From Candidatus Heimdallarchaeota archaeon (GTDB taxonomy: Archaea > Asgardarchaeota > Heimdallarchaeia > Heimdallarchaeales > Heimdallarchaeaceae): a stretch of 32,000 nt of DNA. The stretch is taken from NCBI GenBank assembly GCA_030668875.1, contig DAOVER010000012.1, forward strand, positions 30,001-62,000, given 5' to 3'. The notes under the pieces are model-generated. The model saw only the letters and a program-made list of their open reading frames with translations. It made no database searches and was not told where the DNA came from. Shown here in pieces: positions 2,317 to 23,134 of this stretch; the first letter of the stretch is position 1, and every line of letters begins with the position of its first letter. The position numbers and the translations under genes are program-made.

Positions 2317-4341
2317 ATGCGAACACACAGAGTCAAAGGACTTATATTTTTATCAACAATCATATTAGGTTTAGTTCTTACAAGCTTCTTTGGAGCTTCT
2401 ATGACATTTACAGACCCTAATACTGTATCACAACTTGATCAAACAACCATAGAAAATTTAGTTTTCTTAAATAGCACATCTCCAATTATTGATGGAAACT
2501 TAGAAAGTTTTGAAGGAGAATGGGAAAATGCTACTGTATACAATACTGAATTTGGTTTAGGGAATAAAGCTTTGACAATACGTGTTTTGGCAAATGAAAC
2601 TCACTTGTTTATGGGTATAAATTATGTTAGCTCAATATTCATACCAGTCAATACAACCATTCCAATAGATGAGGAATTCAATAATGAAACTCATACTTGG
2701 TATGCAATTGTTTTTGATAGAAACTATGATTTTATAGCAGGTTCAGAGTTAACTCCTGATGACGCTATAGTGATAAATTATAGAGAAGAAGGAGCACAGG
2801 ATGCATACATCAATGGAACAGAGCTAAACTCTATTGCAATTGATGTAGATGTCACAGGCATAGAAAATTCTTATGCATATGTTAATGGAACATTCCTCGA
2901 TGATTTTGGTGAACATATTGTTACAATTGAAGTTGTGAAGGAACTTGAATCTAATGATGAAATTGGGAATGATATTGATTTACATGCAAGTGAATTCATA
3001 CACTTTGAAATGATAGTGGTTGAAAATCAAACTGCCATATATAATAGAACATTACTAAATAAGACAGATGCATTCACAGGATGGAAAAACATTCGACTTG
3101 TTACTTTGCATGATTATTTTTCATATGTGGAAGATGCATCAGATCTAGACGTACTAATTTACATTTCAGAATCAGAAGCATCAAATTATGATAATCTAAG
3201 CAGCATTATCGTGTTCTTAACAAATTGTGGTGTAAATGTAACATATTCGTTTGATTCTATTGATTCTGATGTTACCTATCAGAGTTTGTCTCAATTTAAT
3301 CTTTTAATCCTTATTGGAGCACAACCCGATTTAACTAATAACGAAATAGATGCAATCGCCCTCTATGTTGCTTCTGGTGGAAGTGTATATGTTCTTGCAG
3401 ATCCTGTTAGCAAAAATGGAAAATTGAATCAATTATTGTCTAAATTCGGAATGGAGGTGTATAGTTCATACCTATACTCTACAGATACTGCTGTTAATTC
3501 TTCTATTGAGATTGATGTATCCGAAATCGAATCTCTACCATATATGACTGGTACAAATATCTTCACTGATCAAAGCGTAAATGAAATTTTATACACAGGA
3601 ACAGCAATTAACTTCACATCTGAACTAGGGGAAGGTAAGTTTTTGTTCCAAGAAGGTGATCTTTATCCAATCATAAATCTTACAGGAGATTATTACATAG
3701 ATTCTGATAATAACGGTGAGTTCAACACAGAGGATATAACACTTAACGATACAATAGTTCAAGCAGGATTAGAGTTGCAAAGAGGAGGTAGATTCATAGT
3801 TACCGGTTCTGCAGATCTACTGAATGCAAGTTACATCGCAGAAAGAGACAACAAAATATTCTTCTTGAGGCAAATCCAATGGTTGATGAAACTACAAAAT
3901 GCAATAAACTTTGAAAACTATGTTGTTGAAGAAGCTAATATTATTGAAGGAGAATCAATAAGTGTTACGGTTTCAGTTCTTGGAGACAATGAAACAGTTT
4001 TAACTGACTTAAGAGCCTGGGTAGTTGTACAGGAATTAAAATCAGATAGAAACAATATCACGTTAACTAAGCATGAAGACAATATCAATTTCAACGGAAC
4101 AATCACTCCTGAGGGTGTAAAAGCTAATTTCGTTGACATTAGTATTAGACTGCACCAAAGAGGTTATGGTTATAATGAGACAGAATTAGTGGAAGTGTTT
4201 CTGCAAGCAGTCATAGGAAAACCTATTAACATTGAAGTAACTGCAACAATCATATTTGTAGTTTCAATCGGTTTAGCAGCTTTAGGTGCTATTGCAGTTA
4301 AAAAATATAAGATACCAGAAGTGGAAGAAAAACGAAAATAA
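2317..4341 (+). CDS. Type I membrane glycoprotein: signal peptide, DOMON-like domain, GIFT (GldG/IFT52/OST48-like) domain, beta-sandwich, C-terminal TM; OST48/Wbp1-like
   Basis: Hydrophobic N-terminus, PIIDGNLE...EW DOMON-like start, YVASGGSVYVLAD and AGLELQRGGRFIVTGSADLL GIFT motifs, one C-terminal TM followed by KKYK, and 21 N-x-S/T sequons counted by hand. Confidence 0.65.
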   Translation: MRTHRVKGLIFLSTIILGLVLTSFFGASMTFTDPNTVSQLDQTTIENLVFLNSTSPIIDGNLESFEGEWENATVYNTEFGLGNKALTIRVLANETHLFMGINYVSSIFIPVNTTIPIDEEFNNETHTWYAIVFDRNYDFIAGSELTPDDAIVINYREEGAQDAYINGTELNSIAIDVDVTGIENSYAYVNGTFLDDFGEHIVTIEVVKELESNDEIGNDIDLHASEFIHFEMIVVENQTAIYNRTLLNKTDAFTGWKNIRLVTLHDYFSYVEDASDLDVLIYISESEASNYDNLSSIIVFLTNCGVNVTYSFDSIDSDVTYQSLSQFNLLILIGAQPDLTNNEIDAIALYVASGGSVYVLADPVSKNGKLNQLLSKFGMEVYSSYLYSTDTAVNSSIEIDVSEIESLPYMTGTNIFTDQSVNEILYTGTAINFTSELGEGKFLFQEGDLYPIINLTGDYYIDSDNNGEFNTEDITLNDTIVQAGLELQRGGRFIVTGSADLLNASYIAERDNKIFFLRQIQWLMKLQNAINFENYVVEEANIIEGESISVTVSVLGDNETVLTDLRAWVVVQELKSDRNNITLTKHEDNINFNGTITPEGVKANFVDISIRLHQRGYGYNETELVEVFLQAVIGKPINIEVTATIIFVVSIGLAALGAIAVKKYKIPEVEEKRK

Positions 4342-6490: not shown

Positions 6491-8755
6491 ATGCCTTATT
6501 CAAAAGAAACTATAGAACTATTGAGTGATTCACCTTTCAAGCAATTTGTCTTAATGGAGCTAGAAAGAGAAAGATTATATCAATCATTCATAGAGATTGA
6601 TGAATTAGATGAAATTAGCAAAATATGGCTAGGTTTTTCGAAAATATGTGCTCAATCACTCGCAGATGTTTCATCAATAGCAAATTTGCTTTATGATCGT
6701 TACATCGATGAATGGACCAGAGATAAAACACAAATAGGGGCTGATGAAAAACGTAAAAAATCATTAACTGGAAAAATCGAAGATTTGCAAGAATTTCAGA
6801 TGGAATCAGCAATATTAATGATTGTTTATGCAGAGATAGTAAATGCTGGTATCTTTGGTACAGCCCCTTCTGATGATTATTGTATATCATTTATTGAGGG
6901 TTATCGTATTCTGAACAATATATCACAAACGTACTTTGATTCAAATCATCCAAGAGCTTCTAGTATAGAGGAGCTGATGTTAACAATTCTGCTCGTAAAT
7001 CAGAAACAACAGGTACTTAATCTTCTTGAAGAATCCCCCTATTTCAAAGATAAAACCACTACTTCTCAAGAAAAGGCATCTTATGAATTAACACAAGCAG
7101 AATTTGATGTTTCTTTCACAGCACAGTTTTTCCAGAAACTTCGAAATGATTGGTGGTGGAATGATGCTATTGCATCCTATTCTATTTACGAAAGAAGTTT
7201 AACACATCTACAAAATGCATTAAGCATTTACAAAAACCTTCCCGAGGATCCTGAATTAATAGTAAAGCAAATTGAACAAAATCTTATACTAACAAATCTT
7301 GCAATGAGGAATAAGGAACTCATTGAACATTATCTTAGACTTAGTTTTGAGGCAGCTAAAAACGACAATTTTATGGCTAGTGTAGAGTATCTCAATTTGG
7401 TACTAGGGTTAGGTAACGAAGCTCTAGAGGCTATTTCAGCAAATATTCACCAAGAAGCAACAAATCTCAAAATAAAAGAGAATATAATAAAGGAAGAAAC
7501 CATTCATACTTTTCTACAAGGCATATCACTTTTAGCAGCTAAGACATCGCAATTGAATTCTATGATTAGTACAGCTAAGAAAGAAGCGATACAAGATTTA
7601 ATAAAACAAATTGAAGAAATAGTTAACAGTCCAGATCTCAACATCAATAAGAATTACGTAAGTAGTTTACCATTTGTGTATCTAAATTATGTTCAAGAAT
7701 TTAAAATTGCATTGCTTGAAAATACACCATTTGAAGAAGCGATGAAAAGGGCTGAGCAAAATTTCACACGATTCTTTGAAAGGTTAGAATTTGCAACCAG
7801 TGATCTAGCATCTCAGTTAATTGAATTAGATAGGAAAGGCAAGAAGATTAAACAAGGAACAGTTTCTCAAATGATAGAGAATATTCAGAATATAAAACTG
7901 GCTACTTATTTTTTACCAAAAAGTGAAGATAAACTGTACATTGTAAAGGATATTGAATGTCTAGAATTCATTGCAAACTCAATCCAGTTAGAACAATTCT
8001 TGAGAGATAAAGAAACAAATGAAGTTCTTGATTTAATTTATCATGCGAAAGCTCATTATTATTCAACAAAAGCTTTAGAGATAACTCAATTAAGCAGTTT
8101 TACAAGAATTGATAGTGAATGGGTTGAAAAACGATATAGTCAAACATTTATTCAAGGTCAAGATATTGAATTACGTCTATTTGAACTAGCCAGACAGTAT
8201 CTCTTTCTAAATACAGTAATTGATGAGATTGCTAACAGTTACAAGGTTGCAAATACTGAAGATAAGACAATTTTAGACAATTATCAAGCAATTATAAAAC
8301 ATGCTTTCAACCAATTTGCAGTTTTTGATGCAATCAATATACGTATTGCTGATGATTGTAATGAATTATTAAAACACAAAAAGTTATTTGTTATAGAAAC
8401 TTCTGACATCAACTGGAAAGCTATAGAGGTAAAGAAACAGCTAACTGACACTCTGATAGATTTTCTTGAAGCTACAAAGAATGCTATTCTCGGTTATGGA
8501 GCCAGTAAGAATAAGGACACATACAAAGCTGCTTCATATTTCAATGATGCATCAAAATTTGCTAAGAATTCTAATGAGACAATGCAACCAATATCACATT
8601 ATGATGAAACATTTGCACAGTTGGCAAAAACTGCTTATGAGTATAGTATCTTGCTTAAGGAATTGGAGAGAAAAGCTAGAAATAGTGAAAAGTTACAGAA
8701 TCTTCCAATGGATCAGATATTTAACACACTGAAACAACTTACTTTTCTTTCTTGA
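6491..8755 (+). CDS. Large all-alpha hypothetical protein (754 aa), possibly TPR/solenoid-like
   Basis: Long ORF rich in E/L/K/A/I with amphipathic helical periodicity. No TM segment or catalytic motif recognised. Confidence 0.8.
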   Translation: MPYSKETIELLSDSPFKQFVLMELERERLYQSFIEIDELDEISKIWLGFSKICAQSLADVSSIANLLYDRYIDEWTRDKTQIGADEKRKKSLTGKIEDLQEFQMESAILMIVYAEIVNAGIFGTAPSDDYCISFIEGYRILNNISQTYFDSNHPRASSIEELMLTILLVNQKQQVLNLLEESPYFKDKTTTSQEKASYELTQAEFDVSFTAQFFQKLRNDWWWNDAIASYSIYERSLTHLQNALSIYKNLPEDPELIVKQIEQNLILTNLAMRNKELIEHYLRLSFEAAKNDNFMASVEYLNLVLGLGNEALEAISANIHQEATNLKIKENIIKEETIHTFLQGISLLAAKTSQLNSMISTAKKEAIQDLIKQIEEIVNSPDLNINKNYVSSLPFVYLNYVQEFKIALLENTPFEEAMKRAEQNFTRFFERLEFATSDLASQLIELDRKGKKIKQGTVSQMIENIQNIKLATYFLPKSEDKLYIVKDIECLEFIANSIQLEQFLRDKETNEVLDLIYHAKAHYYSTKALEITQLSSFTRIDSEWVEKRYSQTFIQGQDIELRLFELARQYLFLNTVIDEIANSYKVANTEDKTILDNYQAIIKHAFNQFAVFDAINIRIADDCNELLKHKKLFVIETSDINWKAIEVKKQLTDTLIDFLEATKNAILGYGASKNKDTYKAASYFNDASKFAKNSNETMQPISHYDETFAQLAKTAYEYSILLKELERKARNSEKLQNLPMDQIFNTLKQLTFLS

Positions 8756-8822: not shown

Positions 8823-9701
8823 ATGTTTAGTCCTCACAAGATGAGTAATCTGCCTATTTCTGACGATATAATTACTAAGTTCAATCAAGCTTATGATGTA
8901 ATTGATAAAATTAGGGGGAAACCAAATAGTGAGCTTGATCAGTATTTTGTAACAAGAGAAACATGTCTGAAGCGTGCATTGCTAGTAAACCCTGAAGATT
9001 ATGATAAAAAGAGAATAGTAATAATGGGAGATATGGACCTAGTTTCATTGGGGATAGGAATGTTTAGTAAACCAAGAGATCTTGCAGTACTTGATTTAGA
9101 CAAAAGAGTTTCAGAAATAGCTTTAAACATGAAGTTTAATCAAAAAATCCGTTCTGTTCGGTTTGTAAATTTAGACATAAGAATTCGAATGATTGCTATC
9201 TTGAGAAATCAGTTTGACTATATTTTCATTGAACCACCTTTGACAAAGGAGGGACTGGAAGTAGGTCTTTCAAGGGCTTTGCAATGTGCAAAAAAAGAAG
9301 AACCCTCAAAAATTTTCCTTTCTTTTGACGCTCCTAACAAGGAAGAACTAGTAGAGAAATACACAGAAAAAATGAATTTAACAGTCGAAAGTGTAAAAAA
9401 ATCATTCAATGAATATAAGTTTAATACACCGTTAGGGAACAAAGAATCCGATTTATTCATTATAAAAGTGAATACAAACTCCAAAGAATCTGTCTCAGAA
9501 CATTACTATGGTCCTTTATACTTCCGAGAGAGTATGCAAGTTCCTTATCCTTATGAATGCAGTTGTGGAAAAATCCACACTATTGGCAAAGGTGGGGAAT
9601 ATAGCTCAGTAGAAGATTTAAAGAACAAAGGATGTCCAGTATGTGGTCATGCAGAAGACTTTCGGTATGCATCAAATATAATGCTAGATGAAACGCAATA
9701 G
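8823..9701 (+). CDS. BpsA/DUF43-like (branched-chain polyamine synthase family) Rossmann-fold protein with C-terminal Zn ribbon
   Basis: RGKPNSELDQYFVTRET...IVIMGDMDLVS...AVLDLDKR...FDYIFIEPP matches the BpsA pattern (RP..EFDQ..VT.ET, GDDDL, DID.R, DPP). CSC...CPVC at the C-terminus. Confidence 0.78.
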   Translation: MFSPHKMSNLPISDDIITKFNQAYDVIDKIRGKPNSELDQYFVTRETCLKRALLVNPEDYDKKRIVIMGDMDLVSLGIGMFSKPRDLAVLDLDKRVSEIALNMKFNQKIRSVRFVNLDIRIRMIAILRNQFDYIFIEPPLTKEGLEVGLSRALQCAKKEEPSKIFLSFDAPNKEELVEKYTEKMNLTVESVKKSFNEYKFNTPLGNKESDLFIIKVNTNSKESVSEHYYGPLYFRESMQVPYPYECSCGKIHTIGKGGEYSSVEDLKNKGCPVCGHAEDFRYASNIMLDETQ

Positions 9702-9726
9702 AAGTATCATGATAACAGGTGATTTC

Positions 9727-10077
9727 ATGTCAGAACCATCAAAGAGAAAAACAATTTGTGCAATTTGCGAGAAAGACATTACCCTTTCAAGTGATATACT
9801 TCTCAATGGATGTCCAAACTGTGGATCTTTCAAGTTTAAAACTTTCAAAGAAGGAAGTATTAAATTTCAAGATGAGAAGGAATTAGATTTAATAGTTGAA
9901 AAGGAAGTAGAACATACAGGTATTCAAGAAGGATTAGAATCAGTTCGGTTAACTAGTGATGGGGTTTTTGAGGTTGATTTGGAGAAACTTTTGACAGAAT
10001 CAGGTGAGGAAAAACCGATTATCAGCAGAAATAAGGACGGTTCTTATTTCATCAAATTCACTACAAAAGAAGAGTAA
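9727..10077 (+). CDS. oapC: OapC/ArvC (DUF2072) Zn-ribbon protein
   Basis: CAIC...LLNGCPNCGSFKF and ESVRLTSDGVFEVDLEKLL...DGSYFI. Start moved from 9688 to ATG 9727 to avoid overlap with the upstream gene. Confidence 0.82.
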   Translation: MSEPSKRKTICAICEKDITLSSDILLNGCPNCGSFKFKTFKEGSIKFQDEKELDLIVEKEVEHTGIQEGLESVRLTSDGVFEVDLEKLLTESGEEKPIISRNKDGSYFIKFTTKEE

Positions 10078-10153: not shown

Positions 10154-11062
10154 TTGGTAATTAAAGAACAACTAGCAAAAGAGCAAAGAATCGCAAGTGG
10201 AGTTAAAGAAATACTAGAATTTAGAGGATTTGAAATAACTAAAATAAAAGAAGACGACGACTTTATAGACGTTTATGCTTCAAAGATTGGAGAAGATGAT
10301 GAGAAAAGGATAGCATTTGCAAGGTTTCCTAAAAACCCTCAAGTCGGAGTAAAAACAATTAGAGTTCTAGGTAAACTTCAAGCAGAGGAGGATTTTGATG
10401 AAGCATTACTAATTGCAGAAACCCCTTTGACTCATTATGCAAAGAAAGAATCTGTGAAACTTGGGATAGAAATTATCAGTAGTACAAACCCATTGTTCAA
10501 TATCTTTGATCATGATCTAGTTCCCCATCATAACAAGTTATCCAATAAGGAAATTCGTTCTTTCTTAATAAATTATCAAATCGAAAAACATCAAATTCCG
10601 AAAATTTTAGAGACAGATCCTGCCGTCAAAGCAATTCAAGCAAAACCAGGTGATGTTCTTAGAATAGTCAGAAATCCTGTAATGGGAGAACAAGGAGCTT
10701 ACTATAGAGTTGTTATAAAATCAACTTCTAGGCTTCGTCTTACAGATTCAGTTTTGAAGAAAAAGAAGACTGCAACAAAGAAGAAGACAACAACTAAAAA
10801 AGTCAAAGCAACACCTGATAAGAAAGCCAAAGCAACACCTGATAAGAAAGCCAAAACAACACCTGATAAGAAAGCCAAAACAACACCTGATAAGAAAGCC
10901 AAAGCAACACCTGATAAGAAAGCCAAAGCAACACCTGATAAGAAAGCTAAAGCAACACCTGAAAAGAAACCTGCAGAAAAGAAGACAGAAGCAAAGAAAA
11001 AAACTGAAAAGAAAGCTAAAGCAAAACCAACGAAAAAGAAACCTGCAGAAAAGAAGAAATAA
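10154..11062 (+). CDS. rpo5: RNA polymerase subunit Rpo5/RPB5 with eukaryote-type N-terminal jaw domain and Lys-rich repeat tail
   Basis: C-domain FNIFDHDLVPHH...QIPKILETDPAVKAIQAKPGDVLRIVR...YYRVV. N-domain RGF...FPKNPQVGVKTIR. TTG start after GAGGT. Confidence 0.92.
   Translation: MVIKEQLAKEQRIASGVKEILEFRGFEITKIKEDDDFIDVYASKIGEDDEKRIAFARFPKNPQVGVKTIRVLGKLQAEEDFDEALLIAETPLTHYAKKESVKLGIEIISSTNPLFNIFDHDLVPHHNKLSNKEIRSFLINYQIEKHQIPKILETDPAVKAIQAKPGDVLRIVRNPVMGEQGAYYRVVIKSTSRLRLTDSVLKKKKTATKKKTTTKKVKATPDKKAKATPDKKAKTTPDKKAKTTPDKKAKATPDKKAKATPDKKAKATPEKKPAEKKTEAKKKTEKKAKAKPTKKKPAEKKK
10805..10972 (+). repeat. Coding tandem repeat, 7 x 24 nt (AAAGCAACACCTGATAAGAAAGCC), encoding K[AT]TPDKKA
   Basis: Units start at 10805, 10829, 10853, 10877, 10901, 10925 and 10949 (last one degenerate). 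The first six units differ from consensus by at most one base and there are no spacers. Confidence 0.97.
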
Positions 11063-15876: not shown

Positions 15877-16227
15877 ATGAAGTATAGAGTAGATTTTGTT
15901 CCATATTCTGAAACTAATGATCTCACTGATGATGAAAAGATTCGTTACATTCTTTCTAAAGTTATGAGAAATACTATCCTTGTACTAGAAAATGGTTTGA
16001 CACCTACAGAAGAAATGAATCTTATCAGCAAAACCATGGTGAAAATTAACTTCAATGATTTTGTAGGTCTAAGGTTCTTCTCGTTTGATGGTGGAACTGA
16101 TTTCAAACTTAACAAACTGTTTGGAAGAGGTTCAAAAAACAAGGTCTTTACTGTTGTAGCTCCTAATGAAGCTGTAACAGTTCAAAAGGACAAACGTGGC
16201 ATATTGTCCATCCGAATTAATGATTAG
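15877..16227 (+). CDS. oapB: OapB/ArvB (DUF2073) protein
   Basis: EKIRYIL...ILVLENGLTPTEEMNLISKTM...FTVVAP pattern. Starts 2 nt after the oapA stop codon. Confidence 0.83.
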   Translation: MKYRVDFVPYSETNDLTDDEKIRYILSKVMRNTILVLENGLTPTEEMNLISKTMVKINFNDFVGLRFFSFDGGTDFKLNKLFGRGSKNKVFTVVAPNEAVTVQKDKRGILSIRIND

Positions 16228-19816: not shown

Positions 19817-20914
19817 TTATTCTCTGAATCTACCTTCGAACTTCTTCAATACATCTGGTAAAGTGGTGTATTCCATTTCACTAAGAGGGAGTCTTCCAGG
19901 CTCAAATGGACCATGTCTTCTCATATATTCAGCAATCTCATTGCATTTTTCACGTGTCGAATCGAATGATAGATCATCGAAAAGATCAACTGCACCTATA
20001 ATTTTTCCATTTTTCAGCTGAAATCCTAAACCAACTACACGAGGTGGTCCGTCAAAACGTACACACTGACTATATTCTAAAGGAACTGGCATTAAAGGAC
20101 CTCTATGAGACCCTCTCATCCATCCTGATACTAAATGACCAAGTGTAAATGCTTCTACTATCTCTCCTACTGCTGGAAAACCACTTTGACTTCTAACAAT
20201 GGCAACAGGATCATCTTTTCCAACATACTTACCTGCAATTAAAGCTAGTTTATCAGTTGAAATAGATGCAGCAATCCCTAATTCAGGATTTTTACTATAA
20301 ACATGTTTTATAACATATTTACTTGGGGCCCCTACAAGAGCTAAGAGATCATACATCTCATTTGGACAACTCAAGTCGAGGAATTTATTTTTGAAAACAT
20401 CCATTACTGAAAAATTAAAACCATCATGCAATTTTGGATCGATAATCAAACCAGCTGTATTGAACGGATTTGCAAACATCTGGAATATGGGATAATTAAA
20501 CGCACCTGGTTCAGTTTTATCCATAGCAAAAACTAAAATCGGCTCAGCAGGTCTCTCCTCAATCTCCATTTCAGCACAACCTGGCCCCATTCCTTTGACA
20601 TTTCCAGAAAATGTGTCTTTTAGTAAATCTTGTCCTGCACCATATAAACCGATATTTCTTGCTTCAGTACCAAGTTTCATAAAAGTGTCCCAAGCTAATT
20701 TGTGTATTTCTGCATTGTCAACACCTTTGTTATGGGTCATTAGAAGTTCAGTATCATCTCCAGCATTAAAAACCAAAAAATCCGTAATAGTATTTTCATC
20801 TTTTGCTTTTTCCATCAGTTCTTCCGCTAAAGTCATCAAAGGTTCATACACAGTTACATGACCTGGACTTGAACCAATATCAGCCTTGATTAAACTTATT
20901 GTTGTTTTCACCAA
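19817..20914 (-). CDS. fbp: Bifunctional fructose-1,6-bisphosphate aldolase/phosphatase (class V FBPase)
   Basis: TISLIKADIGS.PGH, GDD..LLMTH, LYGAGQDLL, DKTEPGAFN, GKYVGKDDP (Tyr/Lys of the aldolase site) and GWMRGSH. Confidence 0.97.
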   Translation of the reverse strand: MVKTTISLIKADIGSSPGHVTVYEPLMTLAEELMEKAKDENTITDFLVFNAGDDTELLMTHNKGVDNAEIHKLAWDTFMKLGTEARNIGLYGAGQDLLKDTFSGNVKGMGPGCAEMEIEERPAEPILVFAMDKTEPGAFNYPIFQMFANPFNTAGLIIDPKLHDGFNFSVMDVFKNKFLDLSCPNEMYDLLALVGAPSKYVIKHVYSKNPELGIAASISTDKLALIAGKYVGKDDPVAIVRSQSGFPAVGEIVEAFTLGHLVSGWMRGSHRGPLMPVPLEYSQCVRFDGPPRVVGLGFQLKNGKIIGAVDLFDDLSFDSTREKCNEIAEYMRRHGPFEPGRLPLSEMEYTTLPDVLKKFEGRFRE

Positions 20915-21032
20915 ATATAATCACCTAATAAAATAATACGGGTTGCTAATACATATTATATGAATCTAATTTAAATCTTTGCCTTTTGAGTATTTAAAAA
21001 AGTAAATATGAAGAGAAAAAAGAGTATAGAAT

Positions 21033-21950
21033 TTAAAGTTGTTCAATTTTGAACCAAAGCTCAATAAGATCTTTTGAGCCACCCACGAATCCAACTCGTT
21101 GATGGAGATAGTGCATCCGGGTTAATTTTTTAACATCAAGGGGGTTAATGTTTTCATATTTTATTTCATGTCCATCTGCAGTAATATAGAAACCATCACC
21201 ATTAACCTTTGATAGAATGTAGAGATAAGGTATTATCTCATAGACGAATCTAAGTTTAGGAGCAAAATAACCAAAAACACCTGTTTTCTCGAAAACGTTA
21301 TTCATGTCTTGTACCATGCAACCTCCATACCTGTTTTTACCTTTAATATCTAAAGCATCTACGAAGAGTTTTTGCTTTGCTGAATGATTATTGTATTTAC
21401 CCCCTAGACCAAAAACAGGATTTTTACTTGGACTTATATCTAAGGAATCTCGAATAACGCGGAAGGATTCACCATCATGAACAAATTGTATAAAACCTAG
21501 TTCAGTAGCCAAATCGAATCGTAAGTAAAGTGTATAACTTACAGTTAAGGCAGCGACAGTATAACCGTCTTTATTGATAACGTTTACAATTGCTCCAGGA
21601 CTTCTAGTTCTTATAATTGAAGAACCATCGATAAAATCCCCAAGTATAATATAATTCCCCGTCCCTTCCATAATATTTTTTTCATCGGTTTCTTCACCCA
21701 GTAGTAAGGAATAAAGATGATTTGGCATTCTTTGTAGGAAAAGTTCGTGTGTTGCGATATCAAGGCTAAGTTGTTCATCCCCAGAAACATTGATAATTCC
21801 TGAATAATCATTTTCACCTAATAAGAAAGTCAGAATCTGTTTTGGGACATCTAAACTTATAGTTATAAGTTCTCTGAGTAAATCACTTAATTCTTTTGAT
21901 TCAAGTGCGTCCAGATAAGAGTCCAAAGTAGGATATTTTGTTATTGACAT
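21033..21950 (-). CDS. Class I FBPase/SBPase-family bisphosphatase, divergent, with SBPase-like signatures
   Basis: GDEQLSLD, GEE, DFIDGSSI, RYGGCMVQDMNN and KLRFVYE motifs. Confidence 0.82.
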   Translation of the reverse strand: MSITKYPTLDSYLDALESKELSDLLRELITISLDVPKQILTFLLGENDYSGIINVSGDEQLSLDIATHELFLQRMPNHLYSLLLGEETDEKNIMEGTGNYIILGDFIDGSSIIRTRSPGAIVNVINKDGYTVAALTVSYTLYLRFDLATELGFIQFVHDGESFRVIRDSLDISPSKNPVFGLGGKYNNHSAKQKLFVDALDIKGKNRYGGCMVQDMNNVFEKTGVFGYFAPKLRFVYEIIPYLYILSKVNGDGFYITADGHEIKYENINPLDVKKLTRMHYLHQRVGFVGGSKDLIELWFKIEQL

Positions 21951-21961
21951 ATAGTCAGATC

Positions 21962-23134
21962 CTAGTATGTGTTTTCTAAATTATTCTCTGTTATGTACTT
22001 ATAACATAACTTAGCTGTATCTTCCATCTTAAGGGCTTCTATGAAATCATTCATATCAGACACGGCTTGAGCAATTATAGATTCTTTTGTGCTTGATTTA
22101 ATATTTTCAACTTCATCAAAGAACTCTTTCCAAGCGTATTTAGAACTTTTAGCGAAAGTTGTATGCTCATCTACATCTGGTTTACTGTAAGTCTCAAGTA
22201 CCCATTTCCTCATTTTTGCGTATAGCTCTGGCTCATTTACTTCGAGTATCTTATAAACTAACCTCTGCCAATGTGTACCTATATTGCCTTTAGCTATATT
22301 ACCATGTGGAAATGTCGATCCTATAACGTTGACTGGAGTACCGGTAATGCCATGTTGTGCTATTCGAGTAGTATATCCTAACTTCTTAAATTCATCAACT
22401 ATTTCTACAGTCCTTTGCACATTGATTCCTAATTGAGGTACAACTTTACCATTTACATCAACACTGACACCATGAGTAGACCCATTTGCTATTGCAAGAT
22501 AATCTAATTTTACACCAGATTTTTCTAAGGACTGAACGTAGTAAGTAGCTTCTTCAAGACTAGTAAATTCTGTGATCCCAATTTCTCCAACCTCCCCTTC
22601 CAGACCGTATGGTTTGTCACCCAACTTTTCTTTCAAAAAATCAAACAGAACTAACCCTTTAGAAAGAATGTCCTTTAGTTGTCCGCTTACTGTAGATTCA
22701 TTTCGATTAAAGAGAAAGGAAGTATCAATTGCATATCCAGAAAATCCAGCGTCTATTCGAGCATTAATCTCCTTCATCACATTGGACATTTCTTCGTCAG
22801 TTCCCTTCTTTACAGTCAAGTGATCAGCGTGTAAAGCATAAGCATACCACTTTTCTTTTGCTGCTGCTGATTGACATCTGTCTGCAAATTTATTAGGGGT
22901 ATATCCAGTATAACCACCACTCAGAGACATCTCACTCAATGCAAGTTCAAATATCACAACAGAATTTGCTTGTTTTGCTGCTCTTAAAATTCCTCTAATA
23001 ACTTCCTCAGTTGCTCTTGGATTTATAGCAGCAATGATTGTTTCTTCTCCTAAAACTCCATTTGCAATAAAATTCATGGGAAGTGGAGTTCTTGGAGTTT
23101 CAAAGAATTCTATAATATCTTGTTCTAGAACCAA
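21962..23134 (-). CDS. fba: Class II (metal-dependent) fructose-bisphosphate aldolase family
   Basis: LHADH, IDTS, EGEVGEIG, ANGSTHG, QHGITG and KGNIGT. TTG start after AAGGTG. Confidence 0.88.
   Translation of the reverse strand: MVLEQDIIEFFETPRTPLPMNFIANGVLGEETIIAAINPRATEEVIRGILRAAKQANSVVIFELALSEMSLSGGYTGYTPNKFADRCQSAAAKEKWYAYALHADHLTVKKGTDEEMSNVMKEINARIDAGFSGYAIDTSFLFNRNESTVSGQLKDILSKGLVLFDFLKEKLGDKPYGLEGEVGEIGITEFTSLEEATYYVQSLEKSGVKLDYLAIANGSTHGVSVDVNGKVVPQLGINVQRTVEIVDEFKKLGYTTRIAQHGITGTPVNVIGSTFPHGNIAKGNIGTHWQRLVYKILEVNEPELYAKMRKWVLETYSKPDVDEHTTFAKSSKYAWKEFFDEVENIKSSTKESIIAQAVSDMNDFIEALKMEDTAKLCYKYITENNLENTY

Follow-up and report, generated by a model that had tools for sequence, protein, structure and literature searches.

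Is the 674-residue protein considered here an archaeal counterpart of OST48/Wbp1, a non-catalytic subunit of the eukaryotic oligosaccharyltransferase, or is it a surface protein built on the same scaffold? Wbp1/OST48 forms part of subcomplex III of the eukaryotic enzyme, together with Swp1 and Ost2, and even for the yeast and human proteins little is understood of its role. The question is raised by an intact open reading frame (ORF) at 2317..4341 (+) of a 32,000-nucleotide stretch, referred to below as the window, from a Candidatus Heimdallarchaeota archaeon of the family Heimdallarchaeaceae (assembly GCA_030668875.1, contig DAOVER010000012.1, positions 30,001 to 62,000). The source assembly comprises 3.23 Mb and is 92% complete, and the G+C content of the window is 32-37%. 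The ATG start of the gene is supported by an N-terminus (MRT...) that is conserved across 29 homologues; the nearest homologues, of about 670 amino acids (aa) and 40-87% identity, all derive from metagenome-assembled genomes (MAGs) of Heimdallarchaeaceae/Heimdallarchaeota. An original prediction, made from the DNA letters and translated frames alone, had proposed both options, and its reading of the architecture, an OST48/Wbp1 layout with an added DOMON-like domain, is supported by the present analysis. We estimate at roughly 70% the probability that the gene is the single Wbp1/OST48 orthologue of this archaeon and that its product serves as a non-catalytic partner in an oligosaccharyltransferase.

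The family itself is not new. In Eme et al. (2023; PMC10307638), divergent WBP1/Ost48 homologues identified by reverse BLAST and HHblits are reported from all Heimdallarchaeia clades, Njordarchaeales included, and as restricted to Heimdallarchaeia, so the core finding was already known. These homologues belong to the same lineage and family as the present gene, which is the sole candidate in its genome. OST48/WBP1 is also listed among Asgard structural clusters in a 2026 preprint (10.64898/2026.10.28.762692). No mention of an added N-terminal domain, or of its lineage-specific exchange, occurs in the accessible portions of the text and supplement of Eme et al. (2023), and full-text searches of the literature on Asgard DOMON proteins and on Asgard WBP1 and N-glycosylation yielded no description of such a domain. 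What is added to the published account is modest and concerns domain architecture and distribution, not a new system: a DOMON-superfamily front domain conserved across the order, and the distribution of alternative front ends in the class. A single-copy archaeal orthologue with a conserved transmembrane (TM) helix and lineage-specific front modules, which are lacking in the Hodarchaea-type and eukaryotic forms, offers a concrete handle on OST48 function.

Structural comparison with eukaryotic OST48/Wbp1

A structural model was predicted with AlphaFold2 from the 29-sequence alignment, with a mean predicted local distance difference test (pLDDT) of 76.5 and values mostly in the 80s-90s for residues 270-630. 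The first six Foldseek matches in the Protein Data Bank (PDB) were all Wbp1/OST48 chains (E 5.5e-17 to 1.4e-14), IFT52 coming next (1e-9). Superposition with VIA-align placed model residues 269-667 on residues 40-448 of human OST48 (8b6l_N; Z 28.5, root-mean-square deviation (rmsd) 6.5, 368/410 residues), and yeast Wbp1 (6ezn_G) gave Z 26.8; the comparison with Wbp1 suggested in the original prediction was thus favourable over the whole chain. Across the eukaryotic chains considered (8B6L_N, 6S7O_G, 6S7T_G, 6EZN_G, 6C26_B, 7OCI_G), Z ranged from 24.7 to 28.5 over 361-373 aligned residues at 10-14% identity. These chains share with the archaeal model both overall size and the order of GIFT domain, β-sandwich, one TM helix and basic tail. 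As modelled, the C-terminal 400 residues therefore match eukaryotic OST48/Wbp1 in fold, domain order and length, and the architecture proposed from the sequence is borne out by the structure comparison and by the profile links to OST48 described below.

The GIFT alpha/beta domain occupies aa 269-527 (3121..3897, +). It is recognised by Pfam IFT52_GIFT (PF23355; 32.4 bits, above the 27.2 cut-off), by the joint profile that reaches human OST48, and by superposition on the GIFT domain of IFT52 (5fms_A; Z 22.5, rmsd 2.9, 214 aligned), which covers model residues 277-529 only. The subsequent immunoglobulin (Ig)-like β-sandwich (aa 528-633, 3898..4215, +) closes on a conserved H-x-R-G-Y-G-Y-N motif and, in the model, aligns with OST48 304-452 and Wbp1 262-420. 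It leads into a single TM helix (aa 641-663, 4237..4305, +), in which G652 is invariant and I645, F647 and G657 are near-invariant, and into a short basic cytoplasmic tail (KYKIPEVEEKRK) ending at the stop codon (4306..4341, +).

When aa 528-674 were folded alone (pLDDT 94) and compared with 48,161 representative chains, human OST48 (6s7o_G) ranked third (Z 10.8, 137 aligned, chain 304-452) and yeast Wbp1 (6c26_B) eighth (Z 10.0, 142 aligned). Among the top matches, only OST48/Wbp1 covered both sandwich and TM helix, the others aligning over at most ~102 residues of the sandwich. A mismatch between this sandwich and the Wbp1 C-terminal domain, named beforehand as the result that would speak against the assignment, was thus not observed, since OST48 and Wbp1 alone among the top matches span sandwich and TM helix. 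The human DDOST segments listed before YNRLGY in the original prediction also proved to be real, and they fall on the columns of the archaeal segments with which they had been paired (HMMER alignment with 8b6l_N/6s7o_G).

The archaeal protein differs from its eukaryotic counterparts in several respects. It carries an additional DOMON-like domain of ~220 aa, it would reside in the cell membrane whereas OST48/Wbp1 resides in the endoplasmic reticulum, and it contains a DxDxDG-like loop that human OST48 lacks. The loop, predicted beforehand as a DxDxNG Ca-binding-like element, is present as DSDNNG (aa 462-467); in the model and alignment it forms a beta-hairpin tip inside the GIFT domain (aa 462-470, 3700..3726, +) and is a candidate Ca2+ site. 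A DxDxDG-like motif is found in most, not all, family members and also in short Asgard forms, and human OST48 aligned with the joint profile shows a gap at this position.

Membrane topology and sequons

The protein is membrane-anchored, extracytoplasmic and sequon-rich. Hydropathy analysis revealed a basic start followed by a hydrophobic stretch (aa 8-28), one TM segment at aa 641-663 and the tail KKYKIPEVEEKRK. The N-terminal basic and hydrophobic segment (aa 1-28, 2317..2400, +; helix 2-27 in the model) is a predicted signal peptide, or a signal anchor if uncleaved. The 674-aa protein accordingly has a type I layout, with signal, extracytoplasmic GIFT domain, β-sandwich, one TM helix and short basic tail. 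Conservation of the TM helix, its invariant Gly included, equals that of the globular domains in the 29-member alignment.

The predicted count of 21 N-x-S/T sequons was confirmed; 8.4 ± 2.6 would be expected, and none of 2000 shuffles reached 21 (0/2000). Sequon counts range over 19-27 across all 29 aligned family members, and for 12 of the 21 sites the position is conserved in at least 80% of the members. This pattern fits an extracytoplasmic ectodomain that would be heavily N-glycosylated.

Sequence links through short Asgard forms

The profile comparison of OST48 with GldG/IFT52 proposed in the original prediction had a mixed outcome: of the models concerned, IFT52_GIFT exceeded its cut-off, and both OST48_N (PF03345) and ABC_transp_aux (PF09822) remained below theirs, as did a match to DUF4350. 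Scanning the archaeon's own genome with PF03345 returned nothing at E<=0.001, so that the link to OST48 had to rest on structure and on intermediate sequences.

Such intermediates were provided by an exhaustive phmmer search, which retrieved 64 relatives in four groups: full-length forms (25-30% identity), ~590-aa forms with a cupredoxin-like N-terminal domain, ~434-468-aa forms without any front domain, and ~220-260-aa proteins matching the N-terminal domain alone. OST48_N is the top Pfam match of the short forms P0090, P0096, P0104 and P0105, and P0104, which has an 88%-identical relative labelled Candidatus Hodarchaeota, passes the model (49.3 vs 36 bits). Alignment of the DOMON-bearing family profile (A1) with that of the short forms (A2) by hhalign extended over 386 columns through GIFT domain, sandwich and TM helix (probability 100, E 4.4e-41). 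As judged from these profiles, the C-terminal 400 residues share homology with Asgard proteins scoring above the threshold of the OST48 family model.

In searches of PDB sequences, human OST48 was matched over residues 59-308 by the short-form profile (E 1.4e-11) and over its entire GIFT domain (residues 57-272) by a joint profile (A4) composed mostly of DOMON-bearing forms (E 1.1e-8); OST48 in the PDB was reached by profile only once short forms had been added. IFT52 equals or outscores OST48 in these searches, but only across the first half of the GIFT domain, where its match has E 5e-4 with the single sequence and 8e-10 with the family profile. A language-model look-up, taken as a lead only, placed aa 270-674 nearest to eukaryotic OST48 clusters (0.86) and aa 45-268 nearest to EB_dh-like gamma subunits (0.93). 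When the short-form alignment was used in a word-indexed search, most of the proteins retrieved were Asgard or metagenomic, and none could be recognised as eukaryotic OST48.

Distribution and orthology

The distribution of the gene was surveyed in 82 species genomes of the class Heimdallarchaeia, and it was present in 63 of them, including 28 of the 29 species of its own family. Full-length DOMON forms were found in these 28/29 genomes and, at 25-31% identity, in two further families of the order (f3, 3/3 genomes; f4, 11/12). In another family of the class (f7), 10/12 genomes contained 584-603-aa frames, the cupredoxin forms, which match from ~aa 295 onward only, and 8/22 genomes of a large-genome family (f5) gave weak matches to 407-461-aa frames corresponding to the short form. 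The front end thus varies, being DOMON-like across this order, cupredoxin-like in another family and absent from Hodarchaea-type genomes.

In the reverse search with P0104, the present gene was the sole match in its own genome (E 3e-12, aa 273-666), and the DOMON and short forms occurred together in no genome, with one gene per genome. Genomic context is partly shared as well: in f5 genomes the immediate upstream neighbour of the short form is a restriction endonuclease (REase)-Rpb5 fusion, which in the present window is found at a distance of 6 kb, and a PGM/PMM-CxxCxxCC pair adjoins the cupredoxin form in f7 and is located 13 kb away here. Single copy, reciprocal search and partial synteny together indicate a single orthologous gene whose front end varies.

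Scanning the archaeon's own genome with PF23355 revealed only one other GIFT gene, which is soluble and IFT52-like (contig C40, L003:475-1842, -). Its 455-aa product (PF23355, 35 bits) has neither signal nor TM segment and possesses a long charged C-terminal half.

The N-terminal domain

The extra DOMON-like domain suspected in the original prediction was recovered by structure comparison as a beta-sandwich of the DOMON superfamily (EB_dh/CBM9-like; aa 46-268, 2452..3120, +), delimited by fold match and conservation. Foldseek matched it to the gamma subunit of ethylbenzene dehydrogenase, CBM9 and Nxr gamma. VIA-align of aa 47-263 gave Z 18.4 with 187 aligned residues for 2ivf_C (ethylbenzene dehydrogenase gamma), Z 16.9 for 7b04_C (Nxr gamma), Z 12.6-12.7 for CBM9 (7nwn/1i82) and Z 12.5 for the DOMON domain of dopamine beta-hydroxylase (4zel), and because of these fold matches the domain is assigned to the DOMON superfamily. 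The fold shared with 2IVF_C, 7B04_C, CBM9 (1I82, 7NWN) and 4ZEL is accompanied neither by a sequence-level match nor by a conserved heme ligand pair, and the domain profile returned no significant sequence match in the PDB or Pfam.

This is also the best conserved region of the protein (mean identity 56% vs 50% for GIFT). PxxDG, W69, D134-x-N136-x-D138, P147-D148-D149, D162, E205, K208, D214, G217 and D219 are invariant in fused and free-standing N-domains; as regards heme axial ligands or a CBM9-type sugar-stacking aromatic pair, K208, W69 and W128 do not vary among the fused proteins. By analogy with CBM9, the invariant acidic/Asn clusters may be Ca2+ sites. On sequence grounds, the domain forms a family of its own, with free-standing membrane-anchored members in Heimdallarchaeia.

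The free-standing proteins have their own signal, the domain and a C-terminal TM segment, and Pfam holds no model for the family. Examples are the metagenomic P0097, P0101, P0113 and P0121 and 250-290-aa ORFs in genomes G035-G045, G059 and G060; such copies occur both within this order and among Hodarchaea-type genomes.

Putative oligosaccharyltransferase partners

If the gene does encode an archaeal Wbp1/OST48, the protein would be located in the cell membrane and accompany the STT3/AglB oligosaccharyltransferase without being catalytic itself, alongside the homologues of Ost1/ribophorin I and Ost3/6, whose genes lie at other sites of the genome. Genes for all of these were detected in the same genome, namely STT3 (159 bits), a ribophorin I homologue in a 702-aa frame (57 bits) and an Ost3/6-like membrane protein (31.9 bits). 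Contacts with partner helices would be made by the small conserved residues of the TM helix, and the ectodomain would be positioned beside the catalytic site, as it is in subcomplex III of eukaryotes. As for the front domain, it would act as a lineage-specific, probably Ca2+-stabilised binding module, for which a glycan is the favoured guess as ligand.

A further step, speculative and with low odds, would be to regard archaeal Wbp1/OST48 as a modular arm with a receptor function in an oligosaccharyltransferase of several subunits. In this view the exchangeable front sandwich would have as its ligand the lipid-linked glycan, the acceptor glycoprotein or some other molecule, and the domain-less Hodarchaea-type form would represent the state inherited by eukaryotes. 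If so, the DOMON-like module would amount to an integral lectin or cofactor domain, to which nothing in the known oligosaccharyltransferases corresponds.

Two Hodarchaea-type genomes encode a ribophorin I homologue ~4.5 kb from the short form. One is a full-length ribophorin I/Ost1 homologue (L032:11734-13800, -; 61.7 bits, profile 5-436/437), and the other (L033:12029-13615, -) was recognised by BLASTP only, with no Pfam match. Both genomes belong to one genus, and the proximity counts as a single, weak association.

Weighing of alternative readings

Several results weigh against a place in the oligosaccharyltransferase, and some of them would also suit an independent cell-surface glycoprotein with a glycan-binding, adhesion or envelope function, built on an OST48 scaffold, acting apart from STT3/AglB and recruited to the enzyme only later, toward eukaryotes. 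OST48_N scores 16.6 bits (E 0.005; profile span 9-225/246), under its 36-bit gathering score, and matches just 5/29 family members at E<=0.1; the generic GIFT models outscore it, IFT52_GIFT matching 29/29 members and ABC_transp_aux 28/29. The DOMON-bearing family profile alone finds only IFT52, and no OST48, among PDB sequences. No match to PF23358, the OST48 middle domain, was listed at E<=10, in a search where HMMER filters drop weak matches and the presence of the model in the library is unconfirmed. The C-terminal sandwich by itself is a generic Ig-like fold for which many unrelated chains tie at Z 9-12, and on this account it was dropped as a diagnostic. The Pfam models DAD (Ost2) and Ribophorin_II (Swp1) find nothing in the 92%-complete genome, which is no proof of absence because Eme et al. 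(2023) needed more sensitive methods. Neighbouring genes vary, with no glycosylation gene as a consistent neighbour and nothing specific to N-glycosylation in the window. Exchangeable N-terminal sandwiches and free-standing anchored DOMON-like copies likewise resemble the modularity of surface proteins. This explanation has a small but real chance of being correct. It fits poorly with a gene kept in strict single copy across the class at full OST48 length and order, with a TM helix whose conservation and invariant Gly go beyond the needs of a plain anchor, and with the ribophorin I gene 4.5 kb away in Hodarchaea-type genomes.

The Wbp1/OST48 assignment must also be set against readings that start from single domains. 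In ethylbenzene dehydrogenase gamma, according to the paper describing 2IVF, Met and Lys reportedly serve as heme ligands. The front domain might by analogy be a heme b DOMON redox module engaged in extracellular electron transfer, not glycosylation, as its closest folds (2ivf_C, 7b04_C) are heme-binding gamma subunits, the language-model clusters nearest to it are of the EB_dh type, the corresponding position in a sister lineage is occupied by a cupredoxin-like domain, and DOMON proteins beside cox genes in Heimdallarchaeia have been discussed as electron carriers (10.1101/2024.07.04.601786). Neither a Met/His nor a Met/Lys pair is conserved, however, M99 varying between M, I and L and H126 being lost in free-standing forms; the invariant acidic/Asn clusters are instead typical of Ca2+ sites, the cupredoxin-like modules do not keep the copper Cys, and the window contains no redox partner gene. 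Because neither the copper Cys nor a heme ligand pair is conserved, a redox role of the front domain seems unlikely from the residues, and was set aside as the main reading; the specific heme b proposal is very improbable. Fainter still is the prospect of a GldG-type accessory protein of an ABC transporter. ABC_transp_aux does reach E 1.6e-6, with its wide occurrence in the family, but its 28.1 bits fall short of the 34.7-bit cut-off and cover only ~80 residues (aa 310-387), no ABC transporter genes were seen in the window or among the Pfam-annotated neighbours of related loci, and the whole-chain structural match is to OST48/Wbp1. IFT52 (5FMR, 5FMS, 8BD7_B), which over the first half of the GIFT domain is the closest match by sequence, is a cytosolic protein that lacks signal peptide, sandwich and TM helix and differs in its C-terminal half, where it has an IFT-B1 binding region; identity with IFT52 was ruled out by the N-terminal hydrophobic signal, the 21 sequons and the C-terminal TM helix, the GIFT part alone being alignable.

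Genomic neighbourhood

Head-to-head with the Wbp1-like gene lies a gene for a small GTPase of the Gtr1/RagA-Arf type (918-2141, -; 407 aa, with an N-terminal extension of ~85 aa). The arrangement recurs at 11/11 loci of the same genus and in two further genera, and not in other families. The GTPase is far better conserved than its Wbp1-like neighbour (74-96% identity). It was considered as a functional partner and, with adjacency confined to the family, treated as local synteny.

Downstream, a 754-aa ORF (6491-8755, +) has no Pfam family; it shares 43% identity with L022:11980-14004, located in the same cluster of another genus of the family. The gene at 10154-11062 (+) encodes an Rpb5 in which an N-terminal Mrr/restriction-endonuclease-like domain precedes Rpb5_C and ~115 extra C-terminal residues follow. 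In Hodarchaea-type genomes, the same REase-Rpb5 fusion (L033:5369-5950) is the immediate upstream neighbour of the short Wbp1 form.

Homologues of the origin-associated proteins OapC (9688-10077, +) and OapB (15877-16227, +) are encoded ~6 kb apart, and their closeness suggests that a replication origin may be nearby. Finally, three gluconeogenic genes stand in a row at 19817-23134 (-): FBPase_3, a class V fructose 1,6-bisphosphate (FBP) aldolase/phosphatase (E 4e-172), a second FBPase, which is class I-like, and a gene resembling class II FBP aldolase.

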